A DNA stretch of 32,000 nt from Mucisphaera calidilacus (GCF_007748075.1 NZ_CP036280.1:660001-692000), one strand, 5' to 3'. Positions 1 through 23,921 are shown, counted from the stretch's first letter. Notes: generated from the letters alone by a model not told the origin. Translations and numbers: made by a program.

Positions 1-323
1 TGGATGTAGGGGTAGATCATCGGGATCTGGATGCCCTGCGTGTTGTAAGAGATCGAGAGGGGGAATTTTGCGCCGCTGGGGAGGGTGGCGTCGAAGGATG
101 AGGGCAGGTAGTCGTCGTTGTCGAAGGCGTAGTACTGGGCGCCGAGTGAGAGTTGGCGCAGGCCCGAGAGGCAGGACATGTCCTGGGCGGCTCTGCGAGC
201 CGCGCCGAGTGCGGGGAGGAGGATGCCGATGAGCAGGGCGATGATGGAGATGACGACGAGCAGTTCGATGAGGGTGAAACCGGAGTTGCTTCGGGGTGTC
301 GGTGGCTGGTTGCGCGTCATCAT
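1..323 (-). CDS. Prepilin-type N-terminal cleavage/methylation domain protein (type II secretion pseudopilin-like, DUF1559-like); C-terminus lies outside the window
   Basis: Absent from the ORF track because it runs off the window edge. Reverse-complement translation from ATG at 323 gives [74 protein letters not shown]... This contains the G|FTLIELLVV prepilin-peptidase motif followed by a hydrophobic helix. Confidence 0.8.
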
Positions 324-434: not shown

Positions 435-1232
435 TTATGCCGCGTGACGGCGGACGAGTCCGGCGATGCCGAGGCCGAGGAGGGCCAGGGCGGAGGGTTC
501 GGGTGTGACGCGGATGTCTTCGAAGCTGACGTTGGCGAACTCGGCGGAGTTGTTGAGGTCGGGTGAGATCTGAGTGTAGAAGCCGACGTTGTACTGGAGG
601 GGTCCGCCCTCGAGGTTGGACCAGTCGAGGAGTCCGCTGGACTCGAGGCCGTTGCCTCGGTCGATGACGTACTCGACCTTTCCGGGGACGCCGAAGCTGC
701 CGCTGGGCGTGTAGGTCATCTGCATGAAGATGGTGTCGCCGAGGGTGTATCCGTCGCCGCCGCCGTTGCTGCCGAAGATGAAGAAGGGTGCGCCGCCGCC
801 GAAGGCGACGATCTCGCCGGCGTCGGAGTTGATGAGGAAGAGTGCGTCGCCGGTGATGCCGCTGTTGACGCGGATGCCGGCTTCCTTGCGGGGTGCGGCG
901 GAGCCGACGTTCATGGTGACGTTGGCGCTGACGGAGAATCCGTCGTTGAGGTTGAGGAGGGTCGCGGTGGCGCCGCCGTCCATGGAGATCATGGCGTCGT
1001 GTCGGTTGGCCCAGTTGCCGCCGATGCCGTCGTCGGCGTAGCCGGACTCGTTGAAGGCGACGATGGCGGGGAAGTTGTCGGTGGTGGTGAGTGTGGTGGT
1101 GCTGAAGTCGTTGAAGAAGCGTTCGCTGATGGCGACGCCGTCGGTGAGTTCAGCGCTGGCGTACAGGGGTGCGGTGATGGCGAGCGCGAGAGTGCATGAT
1201 GCCGCGATACGGGTTGTTGCGAGATTCTCCAT
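435..1232 (-). CDS. Secreted PEP-CTERM sorting-domain protein with an uncharacterised N-terminal domain (paralog 1)
   Basis: From ORF 435..1370. Start trimmed to ATG 1232, which has GAGGAGG 6 nt upstream and opens the signal peptide MENLATTRIAASCTLALAITAPLYASA. The C-terminus VTPEPSALALLGLGIAGLVRRHAA is a PEP motif plus hydrophobic helix plus basic tail. Confidence 0.85.
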   Translation of the reverse strand: MENLATTRIAASCTLALAITAPLYASAELTDGVAISERFFNDFSTTTLTTTDNFPAIVAFNESGYADDGIGGNWANRHDAMISMDGGATATLLNLNDGFSVSANVTMNVGSAAPRKEAGIRVNSGITGDALFLINSDAGEIVAFGGGAPFFIFGSNGGGDGYTLGDTIFMQMTYTPSGSFGVPGKVEYVIDRGNGLESSGLLDWSNLEGGPLQYNVGFYTQISPDLNNSAEFANVSFEDIRVTPEPSALALLGLGIAGLVRRHAA

Positions 1233-1388: not shown

Positions 1389-2525
1389 TCAGTGTCGGCG
1401 TGTGAGACCGAGTGCGGCGAGGCTCAGCAGCGTGAGGCTCGCGGGTGCGGGGACGGCATTGGTTTCGAAGTTGCTGGCGAGAATCGAGAGGTCGAGCAGG
1501 TCGACGGTGGTGTCGGTGTTGAAGTTGCCGCCGGCCCAGCCGGCGCCGGCGTCGAAGTTGCTGGCGAGTGCTGAGAGGTCGAGTAGGTCGACGCTGCCGT
1601 CGAGTGTGGCGTCGCCGAAGCTGGTGGCGAGGATGTCCTCGACGATGAAGTTGAGGTCGCCGTTGTCGACGCCATTCTGCCCGTCGAGGTCGTAGACGGG
1701 GTCGGTGGATCCGGTTCGGATGGCGGCGGTGAGCAGGTCGATGTCGGTGGCGTCAACGACGCCGTCGTTGTTGAAGTCGCCGGGGATTGTGTTGCCGCCG
1801 TCGGTGATGGTCCAGTTGGCGGTGGTGACCTTTCCGAAGTCTGCGGGGAAGGCGAAGACGTTGGGGGGGAACTGGGCGTAGACGCCGAGGCTGCTGCCGT
1901 CGATGACGCCGTTCTCGAGGTTGTTGATTTCGCGGGGGCCGCTGGAGGCTCCGTCGACGAGGAACTCCATGGTTGCGGGCGTGGAGCCGCCCTGGCCGTC
2001 GCCGGGGGTGTAGATGAGTCGGAGGTTGACGGTCTCGCCGAGGGTGTAGGTTTTTCCGTCGAACTCGACGCCGTCGTCGTCGTCGTTGGTTGAGCTGAGG
2101 TAGGGGAACTGCCCGCCGAAGACGGCGATCTCGCCGTCGTTCTTGATGAGGAACTGTCCGTGCCCGCCGAAGTAGCTCTCGAGGTAGATGCCGGTTTCTT
2201 TGATGGTAGTGTCGGAGCCGATTTCGAGGGTGATGTCGACGCTGAAGTCGAAGGCCTCGTCGTTCTGGAATTCGTAGGGGTTGCTGTCGTCGGCGGAGAG
2301 CCAGAGTGCGTGTCGGTTGGCCCAGTCGGCGCCGCCGTCGGGGACGAAGTCGGTTTCGTCGAGGATGACGCCGGTGAGGTCGTTGTCGGTGACGACGAGG
2401 TTGGTGCCGGGGAAGTCGTTGAAGATTCGCAGCTGGGTTGAGACGCTGTTGATGTCGCTGATGGCGGCCTGTGCGGTGGCGGTGCAACCGATGGCGATGA
2501 GCAGTGACGTGGACGTGTGACGCAT
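1389..2525 (-). CDS. Secreted PEP-CTERM protein: uncharacterised N-terminal domain (paralog 2), four dockerin-type repeats, then the PEP-CTERM anchor
   Basis: From ORF 1389..2606. Start trimmed to ATG 2525, preceded by AGGAGTCAGGAGCC, with signal peptide MRHTSTSLLIAIGCTATAQAA. Dockerin/EF-hand-like segments are DFNNDGVVDATDIDLL, DLDGQNGVDNGDLNFIV, DATLDGSVDLLDLSALA and NFNTDTTVDLLDLSILA. The C-terminus is VPAPASLTLLSLAALGLTRRH. Confidence 0.85.
   Translation of the reverse strand: MRHTSTSLLIAIGCTATAQAAISDINSVSTQLRIFNDFPGTNLVVTDNDLTGVILDETDFVPDGGADWANRHALWLSADDSNPYEFQNDEAFDFSVDITLEIGSDTTIKETGIYLESYFGGHGQFLIKNDGEIAVFGGQFPYLSSTNDDDDGVEFDGKTYTLGETVNLRLIYTPGDGQGGSTPATMEFLVDGASSGPREINNLENGVIDGSSLGVYAQFPPNVFAFPADFGKVTTANWTITDGGNTIPGDFNNDGVVDATDIDLLTAAIRTGSTDPVYDLDGQNGVDNGDLNFIVEDILATSFGDATLDGSVDLLDLSALASNFDAGAGWAGGNFNTDTTVDLLDLSILASNFETNAVPAPASLTLLSLAALGLTRRH
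1464..1785 (-). repeat. Intragenic dockerin-type repeat region (four Ca-binding-like segments)
   Basis: The last two segments are also visible as a DNA direct repeat. gaagttgctggcgag...agaggtcgag.aggtcgacg starts at 1467 and again at 1554, an offset of 87 nt (29 codons). By eye, roughly 40 of the first 49 positions are identical. Confidence 0.7.
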
Positions 2526-2605: not shown

Positions 2606-2619
2606 AGAAAGCGCTTACA
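2606..2619. promoter_or_regulatory. LacI-type operator candidate, site A (AGAAAGCGCTTACA)
   Basis: Pseudo-palindrome centred on CG, about 80 nt upstream of the paralog-2 PEP-CTERM gene start (2525). One of four near-identical copies in this locus. Confidence 0.5.
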
Positions 2620-2680
2620 TGAGATTCAGGGCATTGAGGGCGGTTGACTCAGACTTTCAAAAACACCGTAATCCATCATA

Positions 2681-2694
2681 TGGAAACGCTTACA
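2681..2694. promoter_or_regulatory. LacI-type operator candidate, site B (TGGAAACGCTTACA)
   Basis: Fits the TGnAAnCGnTTnCA architecture of LacI/CcpA-family operators. It lies about 155 nt upstream of the gene start at 2525 and downstream of the GH94 stop. Confidence 0.45.
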
Positions 2695-2756
2695 TAGTAC
2701 ATCCCCACGTCGGGGTGTCAAGATTTTTTGTCTTCGAGCTGGAAGATGGTGGCGGT

Positions 2757-5700
2757 TCACAGGATCACCTCCAGGTCGGCCTTGCCTTTCTGGGGCAGGC
2801 TTGAGGCGGGGAGGATGAGTCCGCCCTCGCGGTAGGGGTTGGGTTCGCGTCGGAGTCCGCCAACGGGCTTGCCGTTGATGTTGATACGGGCGGGTCCGTG
2901 GCCGCGGTCGTTGATGTGATAGGTGCATCGGATGGTGGCGCGGCCGCGGTCGAAGGTGTAGGCGAGGCCGTCGAGACGCTGGGGCAGGACGGGGTCGATG
3001 ACGATGGCGTCGGCGGTTTCGCGCCAGCCGAGGAGTGAGCGGATGACGGCGGAGACGTAGATGCCGGGGCCGCTGGAGTAGATGCGCCACCCGCCCTTGA
3101 CGGGGATGTTGCCGGTCATGACGTCTTCGTAGCGGCGTGTGGCCTCGTCGCGGTTGGCGACGTCGGCGTCGGAGCTGCTGAAGTAGGCGTTGGCCTGTCT
3201 GCGTTGGGCGTGGTGGACGTGGTCGTCGAGTTTGACGGGTGTGGCGCAGAGCAGTGCGTCGACGAGGGCGTCGGCTTCGCCGAGGCAGGCGAGTGCTTCG
3301 GCGTAGCGTAGGTGTGCGTGGACGTACATCAGGCCGATTTCGCGGCTGAAGGCGGCGGCGCTCTCGGCGCGTTGGAAGAAGCGTTCGATGCCGCCGAGGT
3401 AGGCGGTGGGGCGGTCCATGAGTCGGGCGCCGTCGGGTGCGAGCAGGTGGCTGCGGATGAGGCGGAGGTGCGTGTGGGCTTCCTGGGCGGTGAAGAGTCC
3501 GCTGAGGATGCCGCGTGTCATGGGCAGGAGTCGGTAGCGGAGTCCGGTGCGGACGTCCTGCGGGTGGAGGATCGGCTCGAAGGCGTTGTTGTTCTCGCGG
3601 TGGTAGCCCATGCCGCAGATGACGCCGTCGGGCATGAGGTGTTTGCGGACGTCGTCGCGGACGTCGGCGGCGCGTTGGCGCAGTCGTCGGCTTGCGGATT
3701 GATCGGCGCCGCAGGCGTGGAGTGCGGTGCCGAGTTCGCGGAGCGTCTGGCTGAGCAGTTCGCAGGTCCAGGTGCTGACGAGTCGTTCGCGGAGGGGTTG
3801 GGAGGTGGGTTGGAGGGCGTCGTTCCAGTCGCCGTGGCCGTAGCGCATAAGGCGTGTGCCGGGGACGAAGGATTTCTCGATGAAGCTGACGGCGTGTAGG
3901 GCGTGTTCGAGGATGGTGGCTCGGGCGTCGGTGGCGTAGTAGGGCAGGGATTCTTTGAGGAGGGAGCGGTCGCCGGTGGCGAGGAGGTAGGTCGCGAGTG
4001 CCTTGAGGGGCCAGACGACGACGTCGCCATGGCTGTCGGCCTGCCGGATGCCGGTGTAGCCGTCGAACATGAACCACTGGGGCCAGTCGCCCGCTTCGTT
4101 TTGCTCGGCGAAGAGCCGGACGAGGATGTCGCGGACGGGCTGAGCTTGTCCCTTGGCGAGGAGGAACTCGACGGGTCCCTGGCAGACGTCGCGGACGCCC
4201 CATGCGCCGCCGTTGAACTGTTCGAGGCCGTGGGGCGAGGCAAGATGGATCAGTGCGTTGTGGCCGAACCAGCGGAGGGTGTCTTCGATGCGGCTGACGT
4301 GGGGGTCGTCGTGTTCGAGTCGGAGTCCTGCGTCGAGTTGGAGCCAGTCGGTCTGGGTGTCTCCGGTGGTGGTGCTGCGGGATGGGGTGTCGGTGTCGTC
4401 GAGTCCGCCTGTCATGCGGAGGGTGAAGCGGTCGACGGGTTTGGTCTGCATGGCGACCCAGGGGTAGCCGCGTGCGCGTCCGTCGGCGAAGAGCAGTTCG
4501 TCGCCGCCGAGGGCTTCGAGTTGTTCGGGATCTTCGGCGGCGAGGGCGAACCAGGCGTCGGGCTCATGCTGTCCGAACTCGCTGGCGGCGCTGGGGCGGA
4601 GGGTGAGTGAGCCTTGGTCGGGATCGATTTCGACGGTTCCGGCCTGTCCGAACTCGACGGCTCCGAGGGCGACGTCGGAGACGAGTATGAGTCGCAGCGG
4701 CGGCCCGTCGATGTCGATGGAGAGGTTGAGTGCGGGCGGTTGTGATTCGGTCCGGCAGTGGATCTTGAGGGTTGTGTCATCGTGTTGATAGAGCCAAGTG
4801 GCGGCGTCGCGGGTGAGGCTCATGGCGGAGGGGACGCCGAGTTGGTGCCAGCCCGATTCAAGCCGGACAAGGATGCGGAGTCCGCCTCGTGAGGCGACGT
4901 CGCTGGGGTTGCGGGTGACGGGGAGGATTTTCTGGAGGACGGTGTTGCCGAGGGTGATCTGGGAGGCGAAGACGCCGTGCATCCAGATGGTCGAGCTGAT
5001 GTCGTTGTCGGCGGGCAGGAGGTTGTCGGCGGCGCGGAGGATGTGGCCGTGGGGGCGTTCGGTGGCGGCTTCCTTGAGGGCGGTGATGACGTGTTCGTCG
5101 GTGCCTCGGAAGAAGGAGAGCGTCTCGCCGTTGGTTTTTTCCTTGTGTCGCCAGGGTGCGGGGAAGTGTTTGCGGAGCGTCTTTTTCTTCATCCGTTCGC
5201 CGGCGAGTCGTGGCAGTCGTTCGAGTCGGTGGCGGTCGACGCGCGCGGTTTCGGCGCGTGCCTGTTCGCGGGCGTGGGCGGCCCAGTCGAAGAGGGGGGT
5301 GAGGGTTTTCAGGTCGTGGTGGTCAGAGGCCTCGGGGTGGTCGGGCTGGAAGACGGCGGCGAAGGTCCAGGCGTGGTGTTCGTTCGCGGTGCAGGTGATG
5401 GGGATGGACTGGAGTGTGGTGGCGGCGAACTCGCCCTGGTGAACGCCGATGCCGATGCGTCGCGAGCGCAGGCGTTCGGGCTGTCCGGTTGAGCGGTGAC
5501 CGGGGCCGAAGAAGCAGACGCCGTCGGTCAGGCATCCTTCGCCGCCGGTGACGCAGGCCTGAGCGAGCCAGGGGAATCGTCCGTCGACGGGGCGGTTCTG
5601 GCGTGTCAGGGCGACGGGGCCCCAGTGCTGTGCCTGTTCGATGCGCTGGTCGAGGTACTGGGCGTTGTAGGCCTCGTTGATCAGGACGCCTGCGCGTGTG

Positions 5701-6080
5701 GAGAGGCCGAGGTCCTGGACGAGGATGGCGTCGAGGGTGGCGGGGTGTTCGGTGTGGACGTCGATGCGCCAGCACCATGCGGGCTGGTTCGGGTGGAGCA
5801 TGAGGGTGCATCGGTAGCGGATGTCATCCCAGGTCCCGGACCATGCTGCGGCGGACTCGCTGAGGCCGAAGGCGCTGTTGGCGTCGGGCGTGTTGAGTCC
5901 GATGGCGTTGACGCTCTGGTCGTAGTGCCGGCGGAGGTAGAGGCGTCCGGTGGTGCCTCGGAGCGGGTCGCCGATGGCGTGGTTGATGAGGATGTTGTCG
6001 TGGGTGATGGCGTGCAGGACGCCGTTGGGGTGAAACGTGACGCAGAGGCCGGCGTCGTTGTTCAGGCGGAGCAGGGTCAT
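2757..6080 (-). CDS. GH94-like glycoside phosphorylase (1107 aa), candidate 1,2-beta-oligoglucan phosphorylase
   Basis: This is the C-terminal 1107 codons of ORF 2757..7127, starting at ATG 6080 (MTLLRLNNDAGLCVTFHPNG...). It contains RYGHGDWNDALQP; from memory, GDWND is the context of the catalytic Asp in GH94-type (alpha/alpha)6 phosphorylases. No signal peptide. The size matches the long GH94 sophoro-oligosaccharide phosphorylases rather than the roughly 800-aa cellobiose phosphorylases. It lies adjacent to the GH144-like gene. Confidence 0.7.
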   Translation of the reverse strand: MTLLRLNNDAGLCVTFHPNGVLHAITHDNILINHAIGDPLRGTTGRLYLRRHYDQSVNAIGLNTPDANSAFGLSESAAAWSGTWDDIRYRCTLMLHPNQPAWCWRIDVHTEHPATLDAILVQDLGLSTRAGVLINEAYNAQYLDQRIEQAQHWGPVALTRQNRPVDGRFPWLAQACVTGGEGCLTDGVCFFGPGHRSTGQPERLRSRRIGIGVHQGEFAATTLQSIPITCTANEHHAWTFAAVFQPDHPEASDHHDLKTLTPLFDWAAHAREQARAETARVDRHRLERLPRLAGERMKKKTLRKHFPAPWRHKEKTNGETLSFFRGTDEHVITALKEAATERPHGHILRAADNLLPADNDISSTIWMHGVFASQITLGNTVLQKILPVTRNPSDVASRGGLRILVRLESGWHQLGVPSAMSLTRDAATWLYQHDDTTLKIHCRTESQPPALNLSIDIDGPPLRLILVSDVALGAVEFGQAGTVEIDPDQGSLTLRPSAASEFGQHEPDAWFALAAEDPEQLEALGGDELLFADGRARGYPWVAMQTKPVDRFTLRMTGGLDDTDTPSRSTTTGDTQTDWLQLDAGLRLEHDDPHVSRIEDTLRWFGHNALIHLASPHGLEQFNGGAWGVRDVCQGPVEFLLAKGQAQPVRDILVRLFAEQNEAGDWPQWFMFDGYTGIRQADSHGDVVVWPLKALATYLLATGDRSLLKESLPYYATDARATILEHALHAVSFIEKSFVPGTRLMRYGHGDWNDALQPTSQPLRERLVSTWTCELLSQTLRELGTALHACGADQSASRRLRQRAADVRDDVRKHLMPDGVICGMGYHRENNNAFEPILHPQDVRTGLRYRLLPMTRGILSGLFTAQEAHTHLRLIRSHLLAPDGARLMDRPTAYLGGIERFFQRAESAAAFSREIGLMYVHAHLRYAEALACLGEADALVDALLCATPVKLDDHVHHAQRRQANAYFSSSDADVANRDEATRRYEDVMTGNIPVKGGWRIYSSGPGIYVSAVIRSLLGWRETADAIVIDPVLPQRLDGLAYTFDRGRATIRCTYHINDRGHGPARININGKPVGGLRREPNPYREGGLILPASSLPQKGKADLEVIL

Positions 6081-6175
6081 GCCTGATTCGTCGAGCAGCG
6101 AGCGCACCTGCCTTGGGCGCAGGGCGGGTGATGCGTTGGTGTCGCTGGCGGTGTTCGCGATGGACGGGTCGCTGG

Positions 6176-7525
6176 TCAACGTCGGCTTTCTTTCGGGTTT
6201 CGCTGGTCGGGCGGGAGGGGTTGGTCGGTGAAGATCGAGACGGTGCTGGTGTGCTCGCGTTCGGCGTCGGTGAGGGGACGGAAGCCGGCGAGTTTCATGG
6301 CCCGCTGGACTTCGGGGTTCTTGCCGAAGACTTTCCAGACGAGACCGCTGCGGTGGTTCTCGGCCATGAGCAGGGTGATGCCGACGTCGATGCCGATGAC
6401 CTGCTGGTTGTACCAGTCGGTGTGGGGGTTGAAGGCGTCGACAAAGCCGTAGGTGGTGAAGGACCGTGGGTAGTCGGCCTTCATCTTCATGAGGGCGGGG
6501 ATGGTGGCGTCGGGTGCCATGGGGATGGATCCTGCGGGGGCGCAGGGGACGACGGCACCGTCGATCTCGCCTTGTGCGGGCGGTGCGCCGATGACGCGGT
6601 AGCCGTCCGGCCCGTCGGCGGCGGTGAGTCCCCACATGTCTGGGCCGTACCTGGGGAAGCGGCTGGCGAGGTCGGCGACGAATTGCTGCTGGGCGAGGGT
6701 GGCGAGGACGGAGTTGCTCCAGTAGTCGGCGTAGTCGTCGCGTTGATCGCGGAAGTCGAACCAGGCGTGAGAGAACTGATGGGTAAACAGGGGCGGGCAC
6801 TCGAGGAAGGTTCTGCCGCCGTAGGTGACGAGTCGGTTGCGTTTCCAGGCGTGCCAGGCCTCGGGGGGCAGGGTGTGGGTCTGGGAGCCCATGCCCAGGA
6901 GGTAGAGCATCATCAGTTCGTTGTAGTCGTGCCAGCGGGCCTTGAGGAAGCCGGTTTCGGGTTTCCAGCCCATGGTGAGGGTTTCGCCGCCGTTCATCAT
7001 CCAGACCCAGTCGACGCGGTCGTAGAGTTGTTGGGCGACGGTTTCGAGTTCGGTGCCGGGGAAGGCGGCTTTGACGGTGAGGACGCCATTGATGAGCAGG
7101 GCGGTGTCGATGCTGGAGAGTTCGCACTGCCAGACGCGTTCGCCTGTGTCCATGTCGACGAAGTGGTAGTAGAAGCCGTTGACGTGCTCCATCTCGTCGC
7201 GGAAGAACTTGAGGGTGGCGAGCGAGCGGTCGTAGGCCTGGTCGCGTGAGATCCAGCCGCGTTCCATGCCGATGACGTAGGCGGTGAGTCCGTAGCCAAC
7301 GGAGGCGATGCTGGAGACGTCCATGCCTTGGGAGCCGTCGGCCATGGCGCGGTCGGGGATGAGGCCGTTGTGGGTGTTGGCCTCGCGCCAGAAGAAGTCG
7401 AAGCTGCGTCGGCTGAGTTCGTCGAGGAAGGCGTCCTGCTCGGCGGTAAGGTCGGCGGGCTGGGCGTTGACGACCGGCGCGGTGGCGAGCAGCAGCGTGA
7501 TGATCAGGCAGGCGAAGCGAAACAC
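6176..7525 (-). CDS. Secreted DUF3131/GH144-like protein, candidate endo-beta-1,2-glucanase
   Basis: 449 aa with a GTG start at 7525 and signal peptide MFRFACLIITLLLATAPVVNAQ. The segments FDFFWREANTHNGLIPDR...SSIASVGYGLTAY...NGFYYHFVDMDTGER...SSIDTALLINGVL match my recollection of the DUF3131 / 'glucoamylase family' (GH144) pattern. Confidence 0.7.
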   Translation of the reverse strand: MFRFACLIITLLLATAPVVNAQPADLTAEQDAFLDELSRRSFDFFWREANTHNGLIPDRAMADGSQGMDVSSIASVGYGLTAYVIGMERGWISRDQAYDRSLATLKFFRDEMEHVNGFYYHFVDMDTGERVWQCELSSIDTALLINGVLTVKAAFPGTELETVAQQLYDRVDWVWMMNGGETLTMGWKPETGFLKARWHDYNELMMLYLLGMGSQTHTLPPEAWHAWKRNRLVTYGGRTFLECPPLFTHQFSHAWFDFRDQRDDYADYWSNSVLATLAQQQFVADLASRFPRYGPDMWGLTAADGPDGYRVIGAPPAQGEIDGAVVPCAPAGSIPMAPDATIPALMKMKADYPRSFTTYGFVDAFNPHTDWYNQQVIGIDVGITLLMAENHRSGLVWKVFGKNPEVQRAMKLAGFRPLTDAEREHTSTVSIFTDQPLPPDQRNPKESRR

Positions 7526-7547
7526 GGGCAGTCTCGATTCTGCGGCG

Positions 7548-7561
7548 GGAAACCGCTTACA
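7548..7561. promoter_or_regulatory. LacI-type operator candidate, site C (GGAAACCGCTTACA)
   Basis: Lies 23 nt upstream of the GH144-like start (7525), between that gene and the lacI-family stop (7601). Confidence 0.5.
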
Positions 7562-7600
7562 TGGGCGTTGATTCTGATCGCGTGGGCGTTACCGCCCGTC

Positions 7601-8602
7601 TTAATCCTCTGATCCACAGGTTCGGCGCGGTACGAAGCGTGTGCGGACGATGGGGTCCCAGTCGTCCGGGGGTGACTCGCCACGGATCTGCATGACGGCG
7701 GCCTCGACGGCTTTGGCGCCGAATTCCTGCATGGGTACGTGGACGGTGCTGAGGCCGAGGTGTCGTGCGACCGGCTCGTCGTCGAAGCCGACGATGCGGA
7801 CGTCGTCGGGGACGCGGAGGCCGGCGACGCGTAGGGCGTCCATGGCGCCGAGGGCCATGCGGTCGTTGAGTGCGAAGATGGCCTGGGGCATGCGTTGACC
7901 GGCTTCGAGGCGTGTCCTGACGGCGTCGAAGCCGCTGTCTTCGCGAAAGGTGCCGTGCCAGAGCGAGCTGGCGTGCAGTTTGACGCCTGCTTCGCGTGCG
8001 GCCTGTCGGCAGCCGGAGATGCGCAGGCGTGAGTCGGTGGAGTCCTTGGGTCCGGTGATGATGGCGACGTCGCGCACGCCACAGGGCCCGAGCAGGTGCT
8101 GCATGGCCTGGTAGGCGCCGGTCTTGTTGTCGATGGCGACGACCATGCCCGAGTCGTTGTCGGCGGGTCGGTCCATGAGGACGACGGGGACGCGCGTGGT
8201 GTCGAGGTTGTCGAGCAGTTCGCCGGGGAGCTGGAGGTTCATGACGATGAGTGCGTCGACGCGTCGCTCCATGACGTACTGGCGGACGAGTCGGACGCCG
8301 TCGGTGGTGCTGTGCCCGAAGGCGAAGACGACCTCGTAGTCCTGCTCGCCGGCGTGGGCGCTGATGCCCTTGAGGACTTCGGTGTAGAAGCCGCTGTCGA
8401 GGTCGGGGAAGACGACGCCAAGGGTTTTGGTGGCGTGTCGGGCGAGGGCACGGGCGGCGTAGCTGGGCGCGTAGTTGAGTTCTTTGATGGCTTCGAGGAC
8501 GCGTTGTCGCGTGGGTTCGGAGACGGTGGCGGTGCCGTTGAGCACGCGTGAGACGGTGGCGATGGAGACCCCCGCGCGTTTACCGACCTGCTCCAGACTC
8601 AC
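7601..8602 (-). CDS. LacI-family transcriptional regulator
   Basis: The N-terminal helix-turn-helix SLEQVGKRAGVSIATVSRVLNG...TRQRVLEAIKELNYAPSYAARALA is followed by a periplasmic-binding-protein-like sugar domain (VVFPDLDSGFYTEVLKGI..., VPVVLMDR, FALNDRMALGAM, IVGFDD). GTG start. Confidence 0.9.
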   Translation of the reverse strand: MSLEQVGKRAGVSIATVSRVLNGTATVSEPTRQRVLEAIKELNYAPSYAARALARHATKTLGVVFPDLDSGFYTEVLKGISAHAGEQDYEVVFAFGHSTTDGVRLVRQYVMERRVDALIVMNLQLPGELLDNLDTTRVPVVLMDRPADNDSGMVVAIDNKTGAYQAMQHLLGPCGVRDVAIITGPKDSTDSRLRISGCRQAAREAGVKLHASSLWHGTFREDSGFDAVRTRLEAGQRMPQAIFALNDRMALGAMDALRVAGLRVPDDVRIVGFDDEPVARHLGLSTVHVPMQEFGAKAVEAAVMQIRGESPPDDWDPIVRTRFVPRRTCGSED

Positions 8603-8659
8603 CAGTTTGACCTCTGCGTGGTGGAAGGTGTGTGAATCGTTGGCCTCCGGGCGGCCCTG

Positions 8660-8673
8660 CGAAAGCGCTTACA
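8660..8673. promoter_or_regulatory. LacI-type operator candidate, site D (CGAAAGCGCTTACA), in the divergent promoter region
   Basis: Lies between the lacI-family start (8602) and the divergent glycosidase start (8736). A perfect 8-bp palindrome TAACGTTA follows 8 nt downstream at 8681-8688. Confidence 0.5.
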
Positions 8674-8735
8674 TCAGGAGTAACGTTAACACGCGGCAGG
8701 GTTTTCGCCAAGTAAAAAGTCGCGACAATCGGGGC

Positions 8736-9611
8736 ATGAAGCGTGACTGCGTTCCACGACTGTCGGCGTTGCGTCCTGTTTATGATCCCTCGCCCTCGGC
8801 GGACGAGCCGTGGTACATCAACGATCACGCCATCATCCGCGACCGGGCTGGCGTGTGGCACATGATCGGGATCACGCATCGTGAGCCGGCCGACCCGTTT
8901 CGGGAGGTTGATTTTGCTCATGCGACGGCGCCGAGCGTGACTGGCCCGTGGCGTCGTGAGGCACACGCGTTGACGGCTGATCCGGAGGCTGGCGAGACGC
9001 ACCTGTGGGCGCCGCACATCATTCATCACGAGGGGCATTACTGGATGTTCTACTGCGCGGGTGGTGAGGATCACACGCGTTATCGTCTGCACCTGGCGAC
9101 TTCGGAAGATCTTTTTTCGTGGGAGCGACACGCCGGCAATCCGCTGATCGTTGATGGGTTTGATGCGCGGGACCCGATGGTCTGCCGGACGGGTGACTGC
9201 TGGACGATGTACTACACGGGCACGGAGCGTCCGGAGGGTGGTCGCCACGCCGTGTTGGCCGCAACTTCGACGGATCTGATTCGGTGGAGCGGGCGGCGGG
9301 TGGTGTTCTGTGATGAGCGGTCGGGGACGTTCGGCGGGCCGTGCGAGTCGCCTTTTGTTCTGGAGCGTGGCGGCTGGTGGTATTTGTTTATCGGCCCGCG
9401 GCAGTTGGGTGAGGCGGGTGAGGATCCGTACAACACCACGGGTGTGTATCGGAGCGGGGATCCGCACGCGTTTGCGGAGGACCAGCGGGTGGCGATGCTG
9501 CCGGCGCACGCGGCGGAGGTCGTGCGTGACGGCGAGCGGTGGTACATCACGCACTGCGGGTGGGGGCAGGGCGGGCTGCACCTTGCGGAGCTGGTCTGGG
9601 GTAAGGGTTAG
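8736..9611 (+). CDS. Cytoplasmic five-bladed beta-propeller glycoside hydrolase (GH43/GH32 superfamily; family not resolved)
   Basis: From ORF 8475..9611, trimmed to ATG 8736 because the upstream part overlaps the lacI-family gene. Motifs are WYINDHAII, HLWAPHIIHHEGHYWMFY, ARDPMV, TSTDLIRWS and PCESPFVLERGGWWYLF. This gives the Asp / (R)DP / Glu-x-Pro triad spacing typical of GH43/32-type propellers. No signal peptide. Confidence 0.6.
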   Translation: MKRDCVPRLSALRPVYDPSPSADEPWYINDHAIIRDRAGVWHMIGITHREPADPFREVDFAHATAPSVTGPWRREAHALTADPEAGETHLWAPHIIHHEGHYWMFYCAGGEDHTRYRLHLATSEDLFSWERHAGNPLIVDGFDARDPMVCRTGDCWTMYYTGTERPEGGRHAVLAATSTDLIRWSGRRVVFCDERSGTFGGPCESPFVLERGGWWYLFIGPRQLGEAGEDPYNTTGVYRSGDPHAFAEDQRVAMLPAHAAEVVRDGERWYITHCGWGQGGLHLAELVWGKG

Positions 9612-9623
9612 GTTGTCGGCGTT

Positions 9624-10334
9624 TTATTGCAGCCAGGCGACCTTGCCGGTGGCGAGGTCGTAGACCCCCCCGACGATCATGAGTTCGCCGGACGCGACGC
9701 GGGTCTCGAGGACCGAACTGCGTGCGGTGAGGTCGTTGATGGTCTGTCGGACGTTGGTTTCGACGACGGCGTTGACGAATTGGGTGTTTGCGACATCGCG
9801 CATGCCCTGGGCGGGCGTGGCATCGATCGCGGGCGAGATCTCGGCGAGCAGGGCGGTGAGGTTGCCCAGTCTGGCGTCGGCGATAGCGCCTTTGACGGCA
9901 CCGCAGGAGGTGTGGCCGAGGACCACGATGAGGGGCGTGCCGGCCAGTTCGGTCGCGAATTCGAAGCTGCCGATCATGGCCACGTCTTCGACGTTGCCGG
10001 CGACGCGGCCGACGAAGACGTCGCCGATGCCCTGATCGAACACGGCTTCGACGGGCACGCGTGAATCGAGGCAGCTGAGGATGACGGCCTTGGGGTACTG
10101 GCCCTCGCTGGCGGTGGTTCGGGCCTGCGCGAGGTAGTCGTACTTCGTGTCCGAGCCGGCGGCGAAGCGCTGGTTGCCTGCCTTGAGGTCCTGATAGGCC
10201 TGGGCGGGTGTCATGTCTGCCTGCGCGGGCTTGGTCATCACGGTGCTGTCGGCTTGATGAAGCTTGGAGTACTTGCCGCAGCCTGTGATCAGTGTCGTGC
10301 AGAGTGCCAGTGCGATTGCGAAGCGGGCCAGCAT
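9624..10334 (-). CDS. Beta-class carbonic anhydrase with a lipoprotein signal peptide
   Basis: CLDSRVPVEAVFDQGIGDVFVGRVAGN and VLGHTSCGAVKGA supply the Cys-Asp-Arg / His-x-x-Cys zinc ligands of beta-carbonic anhydrases. Start placed at ATG 10334 (AAGGA 7 nt upstream), giving MLARFAIALALCTTLITGC with an ITGC lipobox. An alternative ATG is at 10361. Confidence 0.85.
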   Translation of the reverse strand: MLARFAIALALCTTLITGCGKYSKLHQADSTVMTKPAQADMTPAQAYQDLKAGNQRFAAGSDTKYDYLAQARTTASEGQYPKAVILSCLDSRVPVEAVFDQGIGDVFVGRVAGNVEDVAMIGSFEFATELAGTPLIVVLGHTSCGAVKGAIADARLGNLTALLAEISPAIDATPAQGMRDVANTQFVNAVVETNVRQTINDLTARSSVLETRVASGELMIVGGVYDLATGKVAWLQ

Positions 10335-10524
10335 GATTATTCCTTTCTGGTCAGCGGTCATGTGAAGAAAAATATTAGGTGCCTGGCGATGGTCTGGCAG
10401 GTCATCGTGATCGGAACAGGTTTTTTGGCGGCCGGGCGGTTTCGATATGGCCGGAGCGTGCCTGTTCGGCGGGTGGGTTACCTATGCTTGCTGATGCAGA
10501 TACTTGCTCACGAAGGGACGGCCG

Positions 10525-15472: not shown

Positions 15473-16513
15473 TCAGACGAGGTCTTTTTCGCGGAGCAGG
15501 TGATTCGCCTTGACGGCATGAGCCAGCGAGCGTCCGACGACGTCGTTGAGTCGTGCCGGTGACATGCCGAGCCCGGGTCGCTTGATGGTGAGGTCGCTGC
15601 TCTTGAGTCGGTGGCCCGCGGGGAGGTCGTTGATCAGGCAGAGGCTCTGGCGTGAGATTCGGCGGACGTCTTCTTCTTCCTTGATGACGGTTTTCCGGGC
15701 CAGGCCCAGTGCCGATGCCGCTGCGTGTGCGTGCTTGACGTAGTCGCGCATGGTGTTGGGTGTGAGGCTTGCGGCGTGGTCGGGTCCGGGTGCATCGGTG
15801 TCGTGGGTGAAGTGTTTTTCGAGCAGGCAGGCGCCGGCGGCGACGGCCAGCCCGCCGGTGTGGACGTCGGTCGTGTGGTCCGAGTAGCCGGTCGTCAGGT
15901 TTGTGGCGTCACGCAGCAGGCGGATGCCGGCCAGTGAGGCGTCTCGCGGTTCGGCCGGGTAGGCGGAGACGCAGTGCAGCAGGGCGGCGGGGGCGTCGTG
16001 TTTCGCCAGCCGGTCTGCTGCCTTCTGGATCTCGTGCAGTTCCGAGGCGCCGGTGGAGACGAGTGTCATGCGGTGGAGCCCGAGCGTGGCGTCGATCAGC
16101 GGGAGGTTGACGACGTCCGGCGAGGCGATCTTGATGAAGTCGGGTTCGAGCGTGGCGACCTCGTCGACGTCCTCGAGGCTGAAGGGCGTAACGCCGAAGC
16201 GGATGTCGGTTTCCCGGGCGGCGGCGCGCAGTTCGGCGAGTTGCTTGAGGTTCAGGGTGAGCGATTCGAGGAGGTCTTCGGCGGACTCGGCGGTGCCCTG
16301 CTGGTAAGCGGCGAGCTCGGATTCGGCGGAGAGCAGGCGCTCGGGGGAGAAGTGCTGGAACTTCACGGCGTCACAGCCGGCGTCTCTGGCGGCGCGGATG
16401 AGTTCGGCGGCGCGATCGACCGAGCCGTCGTGGTTGACGCCGATCTCGGCGATCACCCAGACGCGTGCGGGGTCGTGCTCGGTTGCGTGGGCGAAGGGCG
16501 GTTTTGCGTCCAT
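15473..16513 (-). CDS. N-acetylneuraminate synthase family protein (NeuB/PseI/LegI-type nonulosonic acid synthase)
   Basis: VWVIAEIGVNHDGSVDRAAELIRAARDAGCDAVKFQ, then a TIM-barrel region, then a C-terminal SAF domain (RQSLCLINDLPAGHRLKSSDLTIKRPGLGMSP). Confidence 0.8.
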   Translation of the reverse strand: MDAKPPFAHATEHDPARVWVIAEIGVNHDGSVDRAAELIRAARDAGCDAVKFQHFSPERLLSAESELAAYQQGTAESAEDLLESLTLNLKQLAELRAAARETDIRFGVTPFSLEDVDEVATLEPDFIKIASPDVVNLPLIDATLGLHRMTLVSTGASELHEIQKAADRLAKHDAPAALLHCVSAYPAEPRDASLAGIRLLRDATNLTTGYSDHTTDVHTGGLAVAAGACLLEKHFTHDTDAPGPDHAASLTPNTMRDYVKHAHAAASALGLARKTVIKEEEDVRRISRQSLCLINDLPAGHRLKSSDLTIKRPGLGMSPARLNDVVGRSLAHAVKANHLLREKDLV

Positions 16514-16522
16514 GGGCGGAGT

Positions 16523-17566
16523 TTACACCCCGTCTTGTTTGCGGGCGTACTGCTGCTCGTAGTACTGGCGGTACTCGCCGCTCCGGATGCGTTGCCACCA
16601 GGCGGTGTTGTCGCGGTACCAGTTGCAGGTCGCTTCGAGTGCCTCGGGCCATGCCGAGCGCGAGGGCTCCCAGCCGAGATCGCGTTGGATTTTCGAGGCG
16701 TCGATGGCGTAGCGGCGGTCGTGGCCCTTGCGGTCCTCGACGTACTCGATCATGGATTCGTCGTGTCCCATGATGTCGAGGATGGCGTGGGTGAGTTCGA
16801 GGTTGGAGCGTTCGTTGTTGCCGCCGATGTTGTAGGTCTCGCCCGCCTTGCCCTGTTCGGCAACGAGCAGTACGGCCTCGCAGTGGTCGATGACGTGGAG
16901 CCAGTCGCGGACGTTGCGTCCGTCGCCGTAGAGCGGGACCTTCATGCCCTGGAGCAGGTTGGTGACGAAGAGGGGGATGACTTTTTCGGGGAACTGGTAG
17001 GGGCCGAAGTTGTTGGAGCAGTTGGTGATGCTGGCGTTGATGCCGAAGGTGTGGATGGCGGCGCGCACGAGGTGGTCGGAGGATGCCTTGCTGGCCGAGT
17101 ATGGGCTGCTCGGGCTGTAGGGCGTGGTCTCGGTGAAGAGCAGGTCGGGCCGGTCGAGGGGCAGGTCGCCATAGACCTCGTCGGTGGAGACGTGCACGAG
17201 GCGTTTGTTGTTGTCGGGGTCGGCCTGTCGCAGGGCGTCGAGGAGGCACTGGGTGCCGAGGACGTTGGTCTCGATGAAGGGTCGGCCGTCGATGATGGAG
17301 CGGTCGACGTGGCTCTCGGCGGCCATGTGGATGACGATGTCTGCCTCGGCGATGAGGGAGGTCATCTGGTCGACGTCACGGATGTCGCCGTGGACGAAGC
17401 GGTAGCGTTCGGGGAAGCGCTCCTCGATATCGCGGAGGCTCTCGGGGTTGCCGGAGTAGGTGAGAGCGTCGAGATTGACGAGGCTGGTGTCGCTGCGGGA
17501 TTCGAGTGCGAAGCGCACGAAGTTGGACCCGATAAAACCGCTGCCGCCGGTGATGAGAATCTTCAT
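16523..17566 (-). CDS. rfbB: dTDP-glucose 4,6-dehydratase
   Basis: From ORF 16523..17611, trimmed to ATG 17566. MKILITGGSGFIGSNFV (Rossmann fold), YSASKASSDHLV (YxxxK), and HVIDHCEA...GETYNIGG typical of RmlB. Confidence 0.9.
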   Translation of the reverse strand: MKILITGGSGFIGSNFVRFALESRSDTSLVNLDALTYSGNPESLRDIEERFPERYRFVHGDIRDVDQMTSLIAEADIVIHMAAESHVDRSIIDGRPFIETNVLGTQCLLDALRQADPDNNKRLVHVSTDEVYGDLPLDRPDLLFTETTPYSPSSPYSASKASSDHLVRAAIHTFGINASITNCSNNFGPYQFPEKVIPLFVTNLLQGMKVPLYGDGRNVRDWLHVIDHCEAVLLVAEQGKAGETYNIGGNNERSNLELTHAILDIMGHDESMIEYVEDRKGHDRRYAIDASKIQRDLGWEPSRSAWPEALEATCNWYRDNTAWWQRIRSGEYRQYYEQQYARKQDGV

Positions 17567-17682
17567 GCGCACGCGTCGCTTTCGTTTGGATTTCGTGTCT
17601 ACCCCATGCATCGGCTTGACCCGCCCCGGGGATTGACCGATGCTCGCTAGGGAGCATAACGCTCGCGTCGAAGGGAAGCATC

Positions 17683-18438
17683 ATGAAGGGCGTTATTCTG
17701 GCTGGTGGTCTTGGCTCGCGGCTGCGACCACTGACGCTGGTGACCAACAAGCACCTGTTGCCGGTGTACGACCGGCCGATGATCTACTACCCGATTCAGT
17801 GTCTGCTGAACGCGGGGATTAACGAGATTCTCATCGTGACCGGCGGTGAGCACGCGGGGGACTTCCTCAAGCTGCTCAAGAACGGGAAGCAGTTGGGGCT
17901 GAAGCAGCTCGCCTACGCCTACCAGGAGGGTGAGGGCGGGATTGCGGATGCGTTGAAGCTCGCAGAAGACTTCGCGGATGGCGACAAGATCAGCGTGATC
18001 CTCGGCGACAACATCATCGAGGGGAACATCCGCAAGGCGGCGGGTGACTTTTTCACCCAGTCATCCGGTGCCAAGCTGCTGCTGAAGGAAGTGCACGATC
18101 CTGAGCGTTTTGGTGTGGTGGCCTTTGATGACGACGGCAAGGTGACGCGCATCATCGAGAAGCCGGAGAACCCGCCGAGCAACTGTGCGGTGACGGGGAT
18201 TTATTTCTACGACAACGACGTGTTCGAGATCTGCCAGACCCTCAGGCCCTCGGGGCGTGGTGAGTTGGAGATCACCGACGTGAACCAGGCCTACCTTGAG
18301 CGTGGCGATCTGAGTTACGAGATGCTCGACGGCTGGTGGACCGACGCGGGCACGTTCGAGAGTCTGCATCGCGCGAGTAACCTTGTGAAGGAGGGCGGAG
18401 CCAACAACCTTGAGTTGACCGCCGTCCAGCAAGCCTGA
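17683..18438 (+). CDS. rfbA: Glucose-1-phosphate thymidylyltransferase (short RmlA-type sugar nucleotidyltransferase)
   Basis: MKGVILAGGLGSRLRPLTLVTNKHLLPVYDRPMIYYPIQCLLNAGINEILIV resembles the RmlA N-terminus. Sits with rmlB/C/D. Confidence 0.8.
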   Translation: MKGVILAGGLGSRLRPLTLVTNKHLLPVYDRPMIYYPIQCLLNAGINEILIVTGGEHAGDFLKLLKNGKQLGLKQLAYAYQEGEGGIADALKLAEDFADGDKISVILGDNIIEGNIRKAAGDFFTQSSGAKLLLKEVHDPERFGVVAFDDDGKVTRIIEKPENPPSNCAVTGIYFYDNDVFEICQTLRPSGRGELEITDVNQAYLERGDLSYEMLDGWWTDAGTFESLHRASNLVKEGGANNLELTAVQQA

Positions 18439-18451
18439 GCGGAGGAGGCTC

Positions 18452-19081
18452 GTGCTGTTCCCGCTCATCCTGTCGGCAGACGAAGCGACGCGGGGCTGGC
18501 GTTTGGGGATCAACGATCCTTCTGCCGAGGCGTGGATGATCGTGGGGGCTTATGCCGTGGCCGGTCTGCTTGCCGGCCGGGCGGCGATGTTTACGGCAGG
18601 CCGTGAGTCGCGATTCTGGTGGCTGATTGCGGCGGTGATGGTCGGCCTGGGCATCAACAAGCAGCTCGATCTTCAGTCGGTATTTACCGAGACGGCGCGT
18701 GATCTGAGCCGGGCGTGGGGTTGGGTCGACTACAAGCGAGCCTTGCAGGTGGCTTTCATCGCGATGATCTCGGGGCTGATGGTGGCTGCTGGTGGTTATG
18801 TCGTCTGGCAGGTGCGTGGGCTGCTCTGGCGCGTGCGGTTTGCGCTGCTGGGGTTGTTGATGATCGGAGCCTTCATCGTCATCAAGGCGGCTTCGCTGCA
18901 TCACGTTGACGTGTTTCTTGGTCGGCCGCTGACGCCGAACAACCTGCTGCGGCTCAATGTCTTGTTTGAACTCCCGGGTATCCTGCTGGTTGCGACTGGC
19001 GCATCGTTGCGCCATCGAGAGGCCGGCTGCGATTCTCCTTCGACACCGTATCCGGAGACCCGTGCTCGTGAACATTCTTGA
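18452..19081 (+). CDS. Hypothetical integral membrane protein (about 5 predicted TM helices) embedded in the rml operon
   Basis: 209-aa ORF with a GTG start 13 nt after the rmlA stop. Hydrophobic stretches are AWMIVGAYAVAGLLAG, FWWLIAAVMVGLGI, VAFIAMISGLMVAAGGYVVW, FALLGLLMIGAFIVI and LFELPGILLVATGA. I recognised no family motif. Its 3' end overlaps the rmlC start. Confidence 0.55.
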   Translation: MLFPLILSADEATRGWRLGINDPSAEAWMIVGAYAVAGLLAGRAAMFTAGRESRFWWLIAAVMVGLGINKQLDLQSVFTETARDLSRAWGWVDYKRALQVAFIAMISGLMVAAGGYVVWQVRGLLWRVRFALLGLLMIGAFIVIKAASLHHVDVFLGRPLTPNNLLRLNVLFELPGILLVATGASLRHREAGCDSPSTPYPETRAREHS

Positions 19082-19631
19082 GACTGATATCCCCGGCGTG
19101 CGCATCATTGAGCCGCGCAAGTTTGGTGACCACCGTGGTTTTTTTATGGAGAGCTACAGCGCGCCGCGGCTTGCCGAGGCGGGCATTGACGACCATTTCG
19201 TGCAGGACAACCACTCGCTTTCAGCAGCGGCGGGGACGCTTCGTGGGCTCCATTGCCAGACCCCGCCTCATGCGCAGGCCAAGCTGGTCCGGGTGACACG
19301 GGGTCGTGTGCTCGATGTCGCCGTGGATGCGCGCAGGGGCTCGCCGACGTTTGGCCGGCACGTCGCGGTTGAACTCGATCCCGAATCGGCGCGTCAGTTG
19401 TATGTTCCGGTGGGTTTTCTCCACGGATTCGTGACTCTTGAGCCCGACACCGAGTTCCTTTACAAGGTTTCGGACTGCTACGCGCCCGAGTGTGATACGG
19501 GTGTGCGCTTCGATGACCCGGACCTGGGTATCGACTGGGGGTTGAACGGTCGCGAGCCGGTGTTGTCGGAGAAGGACAGCCAGTTGGTGAGCTGGGCCGA
19601 CTTCGATTCGCCTTTTACCTGGGAGGGCTGA
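19068..19631 (+). CDS. rfbC: dTDP-4-dehydrorhamnose 3,5-epimerase
   Basis: From ORF 18957..19631, trimmed to GTG 19068. (M)NILETDIPGVRIIEPRKFGDHRGFFMESY...GTLRGLHCQ...AKLVRVTRGRVLDVAVDAR...PVGFLHGF is the RmlC cupin signature. Confidence 0.88.
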   Translation: MNILETDIPGVRIIEPRKFGDHRGFFMESYSAPRLAEAGIDDHFVQDNHSLSAAAGTLRGLHCQTPPHAQAKLVRVTRGRVLDVAVDARRGSPTFGRHVAVELDPESARQLYVPVGFLHGFVTLEPDTEFLYKVSDCYAPECDTGVRFDDPDLGIDWGLNGREPVLSEKDSQLVSWADFDSPFTWEG

Positions 19632-19635
19632 GTGG

Positions 19636-20469
19636 ATGCGTGTGCTGCTGATCGCACCGAACGGGATGCTGGGTCGTGCGTGGAAGGGGCTTCTTGAGTC
19701 CGAGGGCGTCGAGCACACGGCCGTCGGTCGGCCGGAGCTGGACATCACGCGCCCCGAGACGATCGCGTCGATGGTCACGCCCGGCTGCACGCATGTGGTC
19801 AACTGCGCTGCGTGGACGGATGTCGATGGGGCAGAGTCACACGAGGAGGAAGCGAGACGGAGCAACGCCGGCGGGCCGGCTGCGTTAGCCGATGCCGTCC
19901 GCGCGATCGGAGCACGGCTGGTTCACTACTCGACGGACTACGTGTTTCGAGGCGACGGCGACGCGCCTTATCCGGTCGACACGCCGCGCGATCCTGTGAG
20001 CGCTTATGGACGAACCAAGGCGGAGGGCGAGGTTCTGCTGGAGGAATCGGGTGTCGATCACCTGACGATCCGCACGAGTTGGGTTTACGCGCCGTGGGGC
20101 AAGAATTTCGTGCTGACGATGCGCAGGCTTCTGACTGAGCGTGATCAGGTCAAGGTGGTGGACGACCAGCGAGGCCGGCCGACCTCCGCGGAGCATCTGG
20201 CCAGGGCGAGTCTCGGCCTGATGCGGGCTGATGCCCGCGGCTTTTTTCACGTGAGTGACGGCGGTGAGGCGACGTGGTTTGAGCTGGCTCGTCACATCGG
20301 CGACCGAGAGGGGACGACCTGTGCGATCGAGCCCTGCACGACCGACGCGTTCCCCCGGCCGGCGAAGCGTCCGGCCTATTCGGTGCTTGATCTTTCGAGG
20401 ACCGAGGCCTTGATCGGGCCGATGCCTGACTGGCGGAACAACGTTAATGCGGTTCTGGAGCAACTCTGA
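19636..20469 (+). CDS. rfbD: dTDP-4-dehydrorhamnose reductase
   Basis: MRVLLIAPNGMLGRAW..., AAWTDVDGAE, STDYVF, YGRTKAEGE (YxxxK) and RTSWVY, typical of RmlD. Confidence 0.88.
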   Translation: MRVLLIAPNGMLGRAWKGLLESEGVEHTAVGRPELDITRPETIASMVTPGCTHVVNCAAWTDVDGAESHEEEARRSNAGGPAALADAVRAIGARLVHYSTDYVFRGDGDAPYPVDTPRDPVSAYGRTKAEGEVLLEESGVDHLTIRTSWVYAPWGKNFVLTMRRLLTERDQVKVVDDQRGRPTSAEHLARASLGLMRADARGFFHVSDGGEATWFELARHIGDREGTTCAIEPCTTDAFPRPAKRPAYSVLDLSRTEALIGPMPDWRNNVNAVLEQL

Positions 20470-22257: not shown

Positions 22258-22273
22258 AGGCGTCGCTCTGTTC

Positions 22274-22891: not shown

Positions 22892-22902
22892 CGTGGTGGT
22901 GT

Positions 22903-23907: not shown

Positions 23908-23921
23908 GCTGATCTCCTGGG

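Follow-up and report, generated by a model that had tools for sequence, protein, structure and literature searches.

Predicted operators of a LacI-family repressor in a β-1,2-glucan locus of the planctomycete Mucisphaera calidilacus

Introduction

In the CcpA-cre system of Firmicutes the cre sites overlap promoters or lie downstream of them as roadblocks, and in the lacO1/O2/O3 set of Escherichia coli one operator covers the transcription start, auxiliary operators lie tens of base pairs away and the primary operator is naturally asymmetric. For the local, sugar-specific regulons of the LacI family that were reconstructed by comparative genomics (RegPrecise; Ravcheev et al. 2014, PMC4052901), an even palindrome with a CG centre is the norm, 72% of the regulators are autoregulated, and most sites are placed between −140 and −30 relative to the start codon; the text of that survey does not mention planctomycetes (PMC4052901). 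In Listeria innocua the LacI-family gene lin1838 adjoins lin1839, which encodes a 1,2-β-oligoglucan phosphorylase (SOGP), in a cluster with a glycoside hydrolase (GH) of family GH3 and an ABC transporter, and the authors suggested that the LacI protein regulates this cluster (PMC3960220). The literature that we searched describes no β-1,2-glucan regulon, and a 2024 genomic survey of Phycisphaerae makes no mention of LacI, GH144, PEP-CTERM or dockerin. Here we describe a stretch of 32,000 nt (the window) of Mucisphaera calidilacus (Phycisphaerae, Planctomycetota), a marine planctomycete, in which four copies of a 15-nt motif are found among predicted β-1,2-glucan genes, and we argue that these copies are very probably the operators of a LacI-family repressor (lacI, 7601-8602, minus strand) encoded next to them.

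Results

The motif and its distribution

The genes of the locus follow each other on the minus strand in the order lacI, GH144 (endo-β-1,2-glucanase homolog), SOGP (GH94), the two surface-protein genes PEP378 and PEP265 and a prepilin-like gene. An earlier reading of the sequence (the original prediction) had reported four copies of a LacI-type pseudo-palindrome in this locus, and the four 15-mers were all recovered at the positions given for them. They are listed here as candidate operators, with their scores in a position weight matrix (PWM) built from 15 orthologous sites of the Mucisphaera clade.

8660-8674, minus strand: predicted operator O_A, ATGTAAGCGCTTTCG, in the divergent gap between lacI and a GH43-like gene; 26.2 bits
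7548-7562, minus strand: predicted operator O_B, ATGTAAGCGGTTTCC, 39 nt past the lacI stop and 22 nt before the GH144 start; 22.2 bits
2681-2695, minus strand: predicted operator O_C1, ATGTAAGCGTTTCCA, across the −10 and the expected start of promoter P_C; 25.9 bits
2606-2620, minus strand: predicted operator O_C2, ATGTAAGCGCTTTCT, in the leader of the surface-protein genes, 75 bp downstream of O_C1; 26.2 bits

The pattern GCTTACAT has four matches in the 32 kb, all on the plus strand, where 0.13 are expected, and none of 100 shuffled sequences reaches four. When up to three mismatches were allowed to GAAAGCGCTTACAT, the same four sites only were returned, together with reverse-strand self-matches at two of them (1.08 expected), and the LacI-family consensus TGNAANCGNTTNCA with at most one mismatch identifies exactly these sites (0.40 expected). 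The PWM, with the consensus ATGTAAGCGnTTnC, gives the window sites 22-26 bits while nothing else in the window reaches 9 bits, which bears out the assertion that the remaining 23 kb hold no further copy. The restriction of the motif to intergenic DNA was likewise confirmed, with two copies in the 231-bp gap between SOGP and the gene of the dockerin protein PEP378, one in the 75-bp lacI-GH144 gap and one in the 133-bp divergent lacI/GH43-like gap. The site centres lie upstream of the start codons by 65 nt for lacI (O_A, which is also 69 nt upstream of the GH43-like start), 30 nt for GH144, and 88 and 163 nt for PEP378. The repeat unit is about 17 nt long (family D17), there is no longer repeat around the motif, and a comparison with Rfam gave no family match.

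The operator candidate is an imperfect palindrome of 14-16 bp with a CG centre, of cre-like type. Symmetry in five of six base pairs had been proposed for the core, and this holds for the first and fourth sites in coordinate order but not for the second and third, which have four of six over the same positions. Likewise, of the two half-site types that had been suggested, the cre-like one is retained, with one perfect half, ATGTAAGC, and one degenerate half, and the Cra type is unnecessary, the conserved half being TGTAAGC. In all 15 clade sites the half on the upstream side reads ATGTAAGC without variation; in the other half the symmetry-related positions 9, 12 and 14 vary, position 12 being A in five sites, C in four and T in six. 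Read on the minus strand, which is the sense direction of the downstream genes, all four window sites conform to ATGTAAGCGsTTTCn, and a fixed polarity relative to transcription is observed for all sites of the Mucisphaera clade. In more distant loci several sites are near-symmetric and one is reversed (L090:344), so that the polarity may reflect shared ancestry and not a functional rule.

Conservation in relatives and specificity

A scan of GTDB representatives with the LacI protein returned only relatives of at most 39% identity from other phyla. A protein search provided three orthologs (P0002-P0004), which are 89, 78 and 73% identical, on the contigs L081, L082 (Mucisphaera sp.) and L083 (a Phycisphaeraceae metagenome-assembled genome, duplicated by L084). 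These contigs keep the order lacI, GH144, SOGP, PEP378, PEP265 and the N_methyl (prepilin-like) gene. When up to 21 kb of them was scanned with TGNAANCGNTTNCA, sites were returned at the corresponding positions only: upstream of lacI, 39-47 nt past the lacI stop, and twice between SOGP and PEP378, with 90-92 bp separating the two copies (the L081 contig breaks off after the first copy). Conservation upstream of orthologous genes had been put forward as a check on the motif, and it was found: the same four intergenic positions are occupied in the three independent relatives, and the motif is the main conserved island there. The three intergenic alignments (A1-A3) have a mean column identity of 44-52%, with the invariant columns concentrated in the motif.

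The true clade sites score 21-26 bits and the next best sequence at most 11.9 bits in about 110 kb, made up of the window, L081-L083 and 43.6 kb from other regions of the Mucisphaera sp. genome. These 43.6 kb include LacI/GH31/GH66 and GntR/ROK sugar loci and contain no sites, and the absence of the motif from other sugar loci of the relative's genome argues against its being a generic repeat or a global element. One of these loci, L117:4276-15804 of Mucisphaera sp., holds a LacI paralog, an N_methyl/DUF1559-like prepilin gene, a 661-amino-acid (aa) dockerin-type protein, GH31 and GH66, with no motif copy, and suggests a recurrent module in the genus that resembles a polysaccharide utilisation locus (PUL) and would use paralog-specific operators.

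More distant LacI orthologs (44-53% identical) that are linked to a GH144, SOGP or PEP378 homolog have TGTAAnCGnTTnCA sites beside lacI; three moderately close relatives (L088-L090) came from a metagenome scan with the LacI alignment.

L085: LacI 53% identical, linked to GH144 and SOGP
L086 (Poriferisphaera sp.): LacI 48% identical, linked to GH144 and SOGP
L087: LacI 49% identical, in a GH42/GH35 context, same motif type
L088: LacI 45% identical, linked to GH144
L090: LacI 44% identical, PEP378 homolog directly after lacI

The same motif type in the GH42/GH35 context of L087 implies that similar operators serve close paralogs. PWM matches of at least 18 bits in unrelated LacI-centred loci (1.68 Mb) occur almost only just upstream of a LacI homolog, and the motif can on its sequence be assigned to the generic class of LacI-family operators. 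The SOGP coding sequence of Poriferisphaera sp. also contains a perfect match to the family consensus, TGAAACCGGTTTCA (L086:13082-13095); it scores 10.8 bits with the Mucisphaera PWM and is probably due to chance.

The regulator

The LacI protein of the locus (333 aa) is 100% identical to the M. calidilacus protein P0001, and the Pfam families LacI (62.9 bits), Peripla_BP_1 (84.4 bits) and Peripla_BP_3 (100.3 bits) all match it above their cutoffs. The best match of its DNA-binding domain in the PDB is CcpA, with the recognition helix AGVSIATVSRVLNG against AGVSMATVSRVVNG in CcpA, and such a CcpA-like helix agrees with the cre-like operator ATGTAAGCGnTTnC. Assignment to a described member of the family was rejected in each case considered. 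The protein scores 171.9 bits against a cutoff of 442 in the CcpA equivalog model (NCBIfam TIGR01481) and is far under the equivalog cutoff for PurR. For Cra/FruR (NF008452) the values are 123.9 and 385 bits, and the conserved half-site TGTAAGC is not of the Cra type; for RbsR, the name that the protein carries in UniRef, they are 194 and 531 bits (NF007743), and the neighbours are GH144 and SOGP, not rbs genes. By these comparisons the protein would work like CcpA, Cra, PurR and RbsR but is none of them. Its alignment to the 360-aa LacI of E. coli stops about 25 residues short of the C-terminus of the latter, and it probably lacks the tetramerisation helix and forms dimers, without looping mediated by tetramers.

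The strongest competitor to a local repressor is that the sites are cre-like boxes of a global catabolite regulator, an analogue of CcpA or Cra encoded elsewhere. The sites do resemble the cre consensus, the helix-turn-helix (HTH) of LacI-family members with a CcpA-like helix is widespread, and the paralog-linked locus L087 carries the same motif type. The distribution of the sites in the DNA scanned nevertheless points to a local system, since they track the lacI ortholog through differing gene contexts and are missing from another LacI-controlled or GntR/ROK sugar locus of the clade as well as from the other 23 kb of the window, and the local protein is far under the cutoffs for CcpA (172 vs 442 bits) and Cra (124 vs 385 bits). 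We therefore regard a global regulator as unlikely.

Promoters and individual sites

Two promoters were assigned in relation to the sites.

8683-8711, minus strand: putative lacI promoter, −35-like TTGGCG (8711-8706), 17-nt spacer, TGT-TAACGT (−10 at 8688-8683)
2694-2721, minus strand: predicted promoter P_C, TTGACA (2721-2716), 16-nt spacer, TACTAT (2699-2694)

P_C is the only σ70-like match in the first 11 kb, and CTTGACA-N16-TAnnAT is invariant in the four genomes while the sequence of the spacer varies. The last two bases of its −10 are the first two bases of O_C1, of which all 15 bases are invariant in the four genomes. A conserved promoter with a candidate operator over its −10 and its predicted start is the classic layout for steric repression. 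O_C2 is kept in L082 (92 bp from its O_C1) and in L083 (90 bp). A tetramer that loops the DNA between the two sites is unlikely, since they are separated by 75, 90 or 92 bp depending on the genome and a protein of this length has no room for the C-terminal helix; O_C2 may more likely be a second roadblock or provide added occupancy. A 7-bp GC-rich hairpin at 2699-2718, ACATCCCCACGTCGGGGTGT, which is followed by a T-run on the plus strand and looks like a terminator, was rejected as a functional element; it lies inside the non-conserved spacer of P_C.

O_A has orthologs upstream of lacI in L081, L082 and L083, and a TTGnC with a TAnnnT hexamer is found 4-9 nt upstream of it in four of four genomes (alignment A1), in line with the putative lacI promoter. 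The perfect palindrome TAACGTTA that the original prediction had pointed out next to O_A is present at 8681-8688 and unique in the window. As a second operator it was rejected, as it is not conserved in L082 and L083 and is off the register of the LacI consensus. It is kept only in the 89% relative (L081), where the whole promoter block is conserved and whose divergent gene is not a homolog of the GH43-like gene, and it is for this reason better read as lacI promoter sequence, probably as part of the −10 region, where it overlaps a plausible extended −10. O_B is the only conserved block of the lacI-GH144 spacer in the four genomes; since it keeps a constant distance to the lacI stop, it may act as a roadblock within a transcript that runs through lacI, GH144 and SOGP.

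The motif could also be thought of as a core promoter or initiator element read by RNA polymerase, since the four window sites are all oriented with the genes that follow them, at P_C the motif runs into the −10 hexamer, and its asymmetry is conserved with fixed polarity in the Mucisphaera clade. This we consider very unlikely, given that O_B and O_C2 have no conserved −35 or −10 partner, that the motif is a CG-centred palindrome fitting TGNAANCGNTTNCA and has no copy in any other intergenic region of the roughly 110 kb examined, and that the site of L090 has the opposite orientation. Still less probable is an element acting in the RNA, such as a short 5'-leader hairpin that affects stability or translation: transcription probably covers three of the four sites, and a palindrome is able to fold, but a palindrome centred on CG leaves no loop, the variable right-half positions 9, 12 and 14 break the pairing with the invariant left half without compensation, and no Rfam family matches. 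Chance recurrence or a small mobile-repeat remnant, which the shortness of the unit (15-17 nt) might suggest, is effectively refuted by the shuffled sequences (0 of 100 with four copies), by positions kept across genomes with diverged flanks and by the lack of any extended repeat or terminal structure.

Genes of the locus

The genes around the four sites are given below.

7601-8602, minus strand: lacI, LacI-family regulator of 333 aa with an N-terminal HTH and a sugar-binding domain
6176-7525, minus strand: homolog of GH144-type endo-β-1,2-glucanase with a signal peptide (PF10091 at 8e-69)
2757-6080, minus strand: homolog of 1,2-β-oligoglucan phosphorylase (SOGP, GH94), with Pfam SOGP_N, SOGP_2nd, GH94 and SOGP_4th (PDB 5h3z, 9e-186)
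1389-2525, minus strand: PEP378, secreted, 378 aa, with a ConA-like β-jelly-roll (predicted, residues ~20-243), dockerin-like repeats and a PEP-CTERM-like anchor
435-1232, minus strand: PEP265, 265 aa, paralog of the PEP378 N-domain with a PEP-CTERM anchor (26.3 bits)
1-323, minus strand: start of a prepilin-type gene (N_methyl / DUF1559-like), cut by the window edge; the translation begins MMTRNQ
8736-9611, plus strand: GH43-like five-bladed-propeller protein, divergent from lacI, with weak Pfam matches to GH43 and GH32N and weak PDB matches to arabinanases

The GH144 homolog matches XcSGL (PDB 8xul, 2e-84), a GH144 enzyme (PMC12102758), and the endo-β-1,2-glucanase 5gzh (3e-55). With homologs of characterised GH144 and GH94 SOGP enzymes side by side, the locus qualifies by its gene content as a predicted β-1,2-glucan utilisation locus. 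The position of the prepilin-like gene matches that of the N_methyl genes of L082 and L083 by synteny and BLAST.

An autoregulated LacI regulon that covers the enzymes and a surface protein had been proposed. The positional conservation of the sites is in agreement with this for lacI, the enzymes and the surface protein, but not for the divergent GH43-like gene, which has no homolog at the corresponding position in L081-L083 (it is replaced in L081 and absent from L082 and L083) and which would at best be a member specific to M. calidilacus. The region beyond lacI differs between the genomes. An operon resembling type II secretion and type IV pilus systems (MshEN/T2SSE, T2SSF and PilN-like) ends about 160 bp upstream of lacI in L082 (4131-9840) and L083 (4152-9846); its place (8736-10361 in the window) is taken in M. 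calidilacus by the GH43-like gene and a β-carbonic anhydrase and in L081 by an unrelated secreted protein of 276 aa and a carbonic anhydrase.

The surface proteins

PEP378 orthologs with 62-70% identity hold the corresponding place in the relatives, and PEP265 orthologs are found in L082 and L083. The Dockerin_1 match of PEP378 (22.7 bits) is just below the cutoff of 22.9. Its N-domain of about 225 aa is 34% identical to that of PEP265 over 229 aa and has few homologs. An AlphaFold2 model of PEP378 from 8 sequences (predicted local distance difference test, pLDDT, about 80 for the domain and 67 overall) presents a β-sandwich, for which Foldseek returned alginate lyases of the polysaccharide lyase families PL7 and PL14, the carbohydrate-recognition domains of Emp46/47 and legume lectins (E about 1e-5, target-normalised TM score 0.4-0.58). 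The fold of the N-domain is, as modelled, a ConA-like jelly-roll. A glycan-binding role of PEP378 and PEP265 is plausible and a glycan-cleaving role possible. The adjacency of lacI and a PEP378 homolog in L090 is independent of the Mucisphaera arrangement and strengthens the functional link between surface protein and regulator.

The C-terminal third of PEP378, a module of about 130 aa with dockerin-like repeats and a PEP-CTERM-like anchor, occurs on more than 30 M. calidilacus proteins, next to unrelated N-terminal domains (serine hydrolase, GH16, aspartyl protease, Asl1-like GH), and looks like a lineage-specific surface-display cassette. Small secreted proteins are also encoded between lacI and the glycoside hydrolases in L085 (11073-14002) and L087 (11020-11580); L085_241 and L087_186 are 33% identical, both with an N-terminal 'NPGFE'-like sequence, and are candidate glycan-binding accessory proteins.

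Other observations in the window

The other 20 kb of the window encode carbonic anhydrase, 2-hydroxyacid dehydrogenase, FtsH, NeuB, rml and sulfate-activation genes, a transporter and glycosyltransferases. At 15473-31977 four glycosyltransferase genes are clustered with NeuB, dTDP-sugar (rml) genes, a CitMHS/TrkA-C transporter, a PAPS-reductase-domain gene and two APS kinases, one of them in a fusion with CysN. This cluster resembles a locus for an exopolysaccharide that is sulfated or contains nonulosonic acid, and such a locus would fit the viscous growth reported for M. calidilacus (PMC8882080). The GC skew is positive in every 1-kb bin of the window (1-32000; 0.06-0.32) irrespective of the strand of the genes and is strongest over the minus-strand glycan genes, a marked strand compositional bias.

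Discussion

Taken together, our data make it very probable that the LacI-family repressor encoded next to the four 15-mers (7601-8602, minus strand) uses them as operators. We infer that the protein would bind these sites and that it would repress rather than activate.

Some observations weigh against this assignment. The orthologous sites are not independent of each other, and the Mucisphaera clade provides four independent positions only. The sites are also markedly asymmetric, with a perfect left half and a right half degenerate at three of seven positions. Finally, a conserved promoter was sought by eye in the lacI-GH144 spacer of the four genomes and none was found, which leaves the role of O_B as conjecture.

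If the sites are operators of this repressor, a dimer would occupy each of them without inducer. At O_A, which lies at the expected start of lacI, it would bring about autoregulation of lacI and reduce read-through into GH144 and SOGP. O_B would keep transcription from reaching GH144-SOGP, whether it acts as a roadblock or masks a weak internal promoter; as a roadblock it would allow basal synthesis of LacI while the enzymes are kept off. O_C1 and O_C2 would shut off both ConA-like surface proteins and probably also the prepilin-like gene behind them. Binding of an inducer to the sugar domain would then release the repressor, and from the enzymes encoded in the locus this inducer is most likely sophorose or a short β-1,2-gluco-oligosaccharide.

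By tying the two surface proteins to the breakdown of β-1,2-glucan, the regulatory map makes them candidates for glycan-binding components. It is tempting to speculate further that PEP378 and PEP265 are a previously unrecognised family of surface proteins that bind or process β-1,2-glucan, and that the combination of LacI, prepilin-like gene, anchored lectin and glycoside hydrolases is a planctomycete counterpart of the PULs of Bacteroidota with the LacI operator as its regulatory signature, a proposal that we regard as tentative. In the literature that we searched, the present map, with one operator consensus, four sites and two promoters, is the first concrete cis-regulatory map for a carbohydrate locus of the Phycisphaerae. 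The proposed mechanism is textbook LacI-family biology, a small conceptual surprise with no new principle, in a lineage for which no earlier mapped switch is known. P_C and O_C1 together with the repressor might be used as an inducible expression tool for planctomycetes, where genetic parts are scarce.

In several respects the predicted system can be compared to the CcpA-cre system of Firmicutes, which also belongs to the LacI family (DNA complexes 1zvv and 3oqm): the recognition helix is nearly identical and the operator is a 14-bp CG-centred sequence of the TGTAAGCGCTTACA type. Unlike CcpA, the Mucisphaera regulator is predicted to be local and autoregulated; it is encoded within its target locus, far below the CcpA cutoff and found in the phylum Planctomycetota, and no corepressor logic with HPr-Ser-P is implied for it. 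With LacI and lacO of E. coli it shares a start-overlapping operator, auxiliary sites and operator asymmetry; it differs in length (333 vs 360 aa) and probably in the missing tetramerisation helix. The SOGP cluster of Listeria innocua, for which no operator was defined, has GH3 where the Mucisphaera locus has GH144, and the latter has no transporter and in addition encodes the PEP-CTERM/dockerin proteins and the prepilin-like gene. There is agreement with the local LacI regulons of RegPrecise (PMC4052901) in the CG-centred even palindrome, the autoregulation, the distances of the sites and the clustering of the regulator with catabolic genes, while the Mucisphaera regulon as predicted here departs from them by taking in surface lectin-like proteins and in the placing of two of its four operators, which lie within transcription units or downstream of them.

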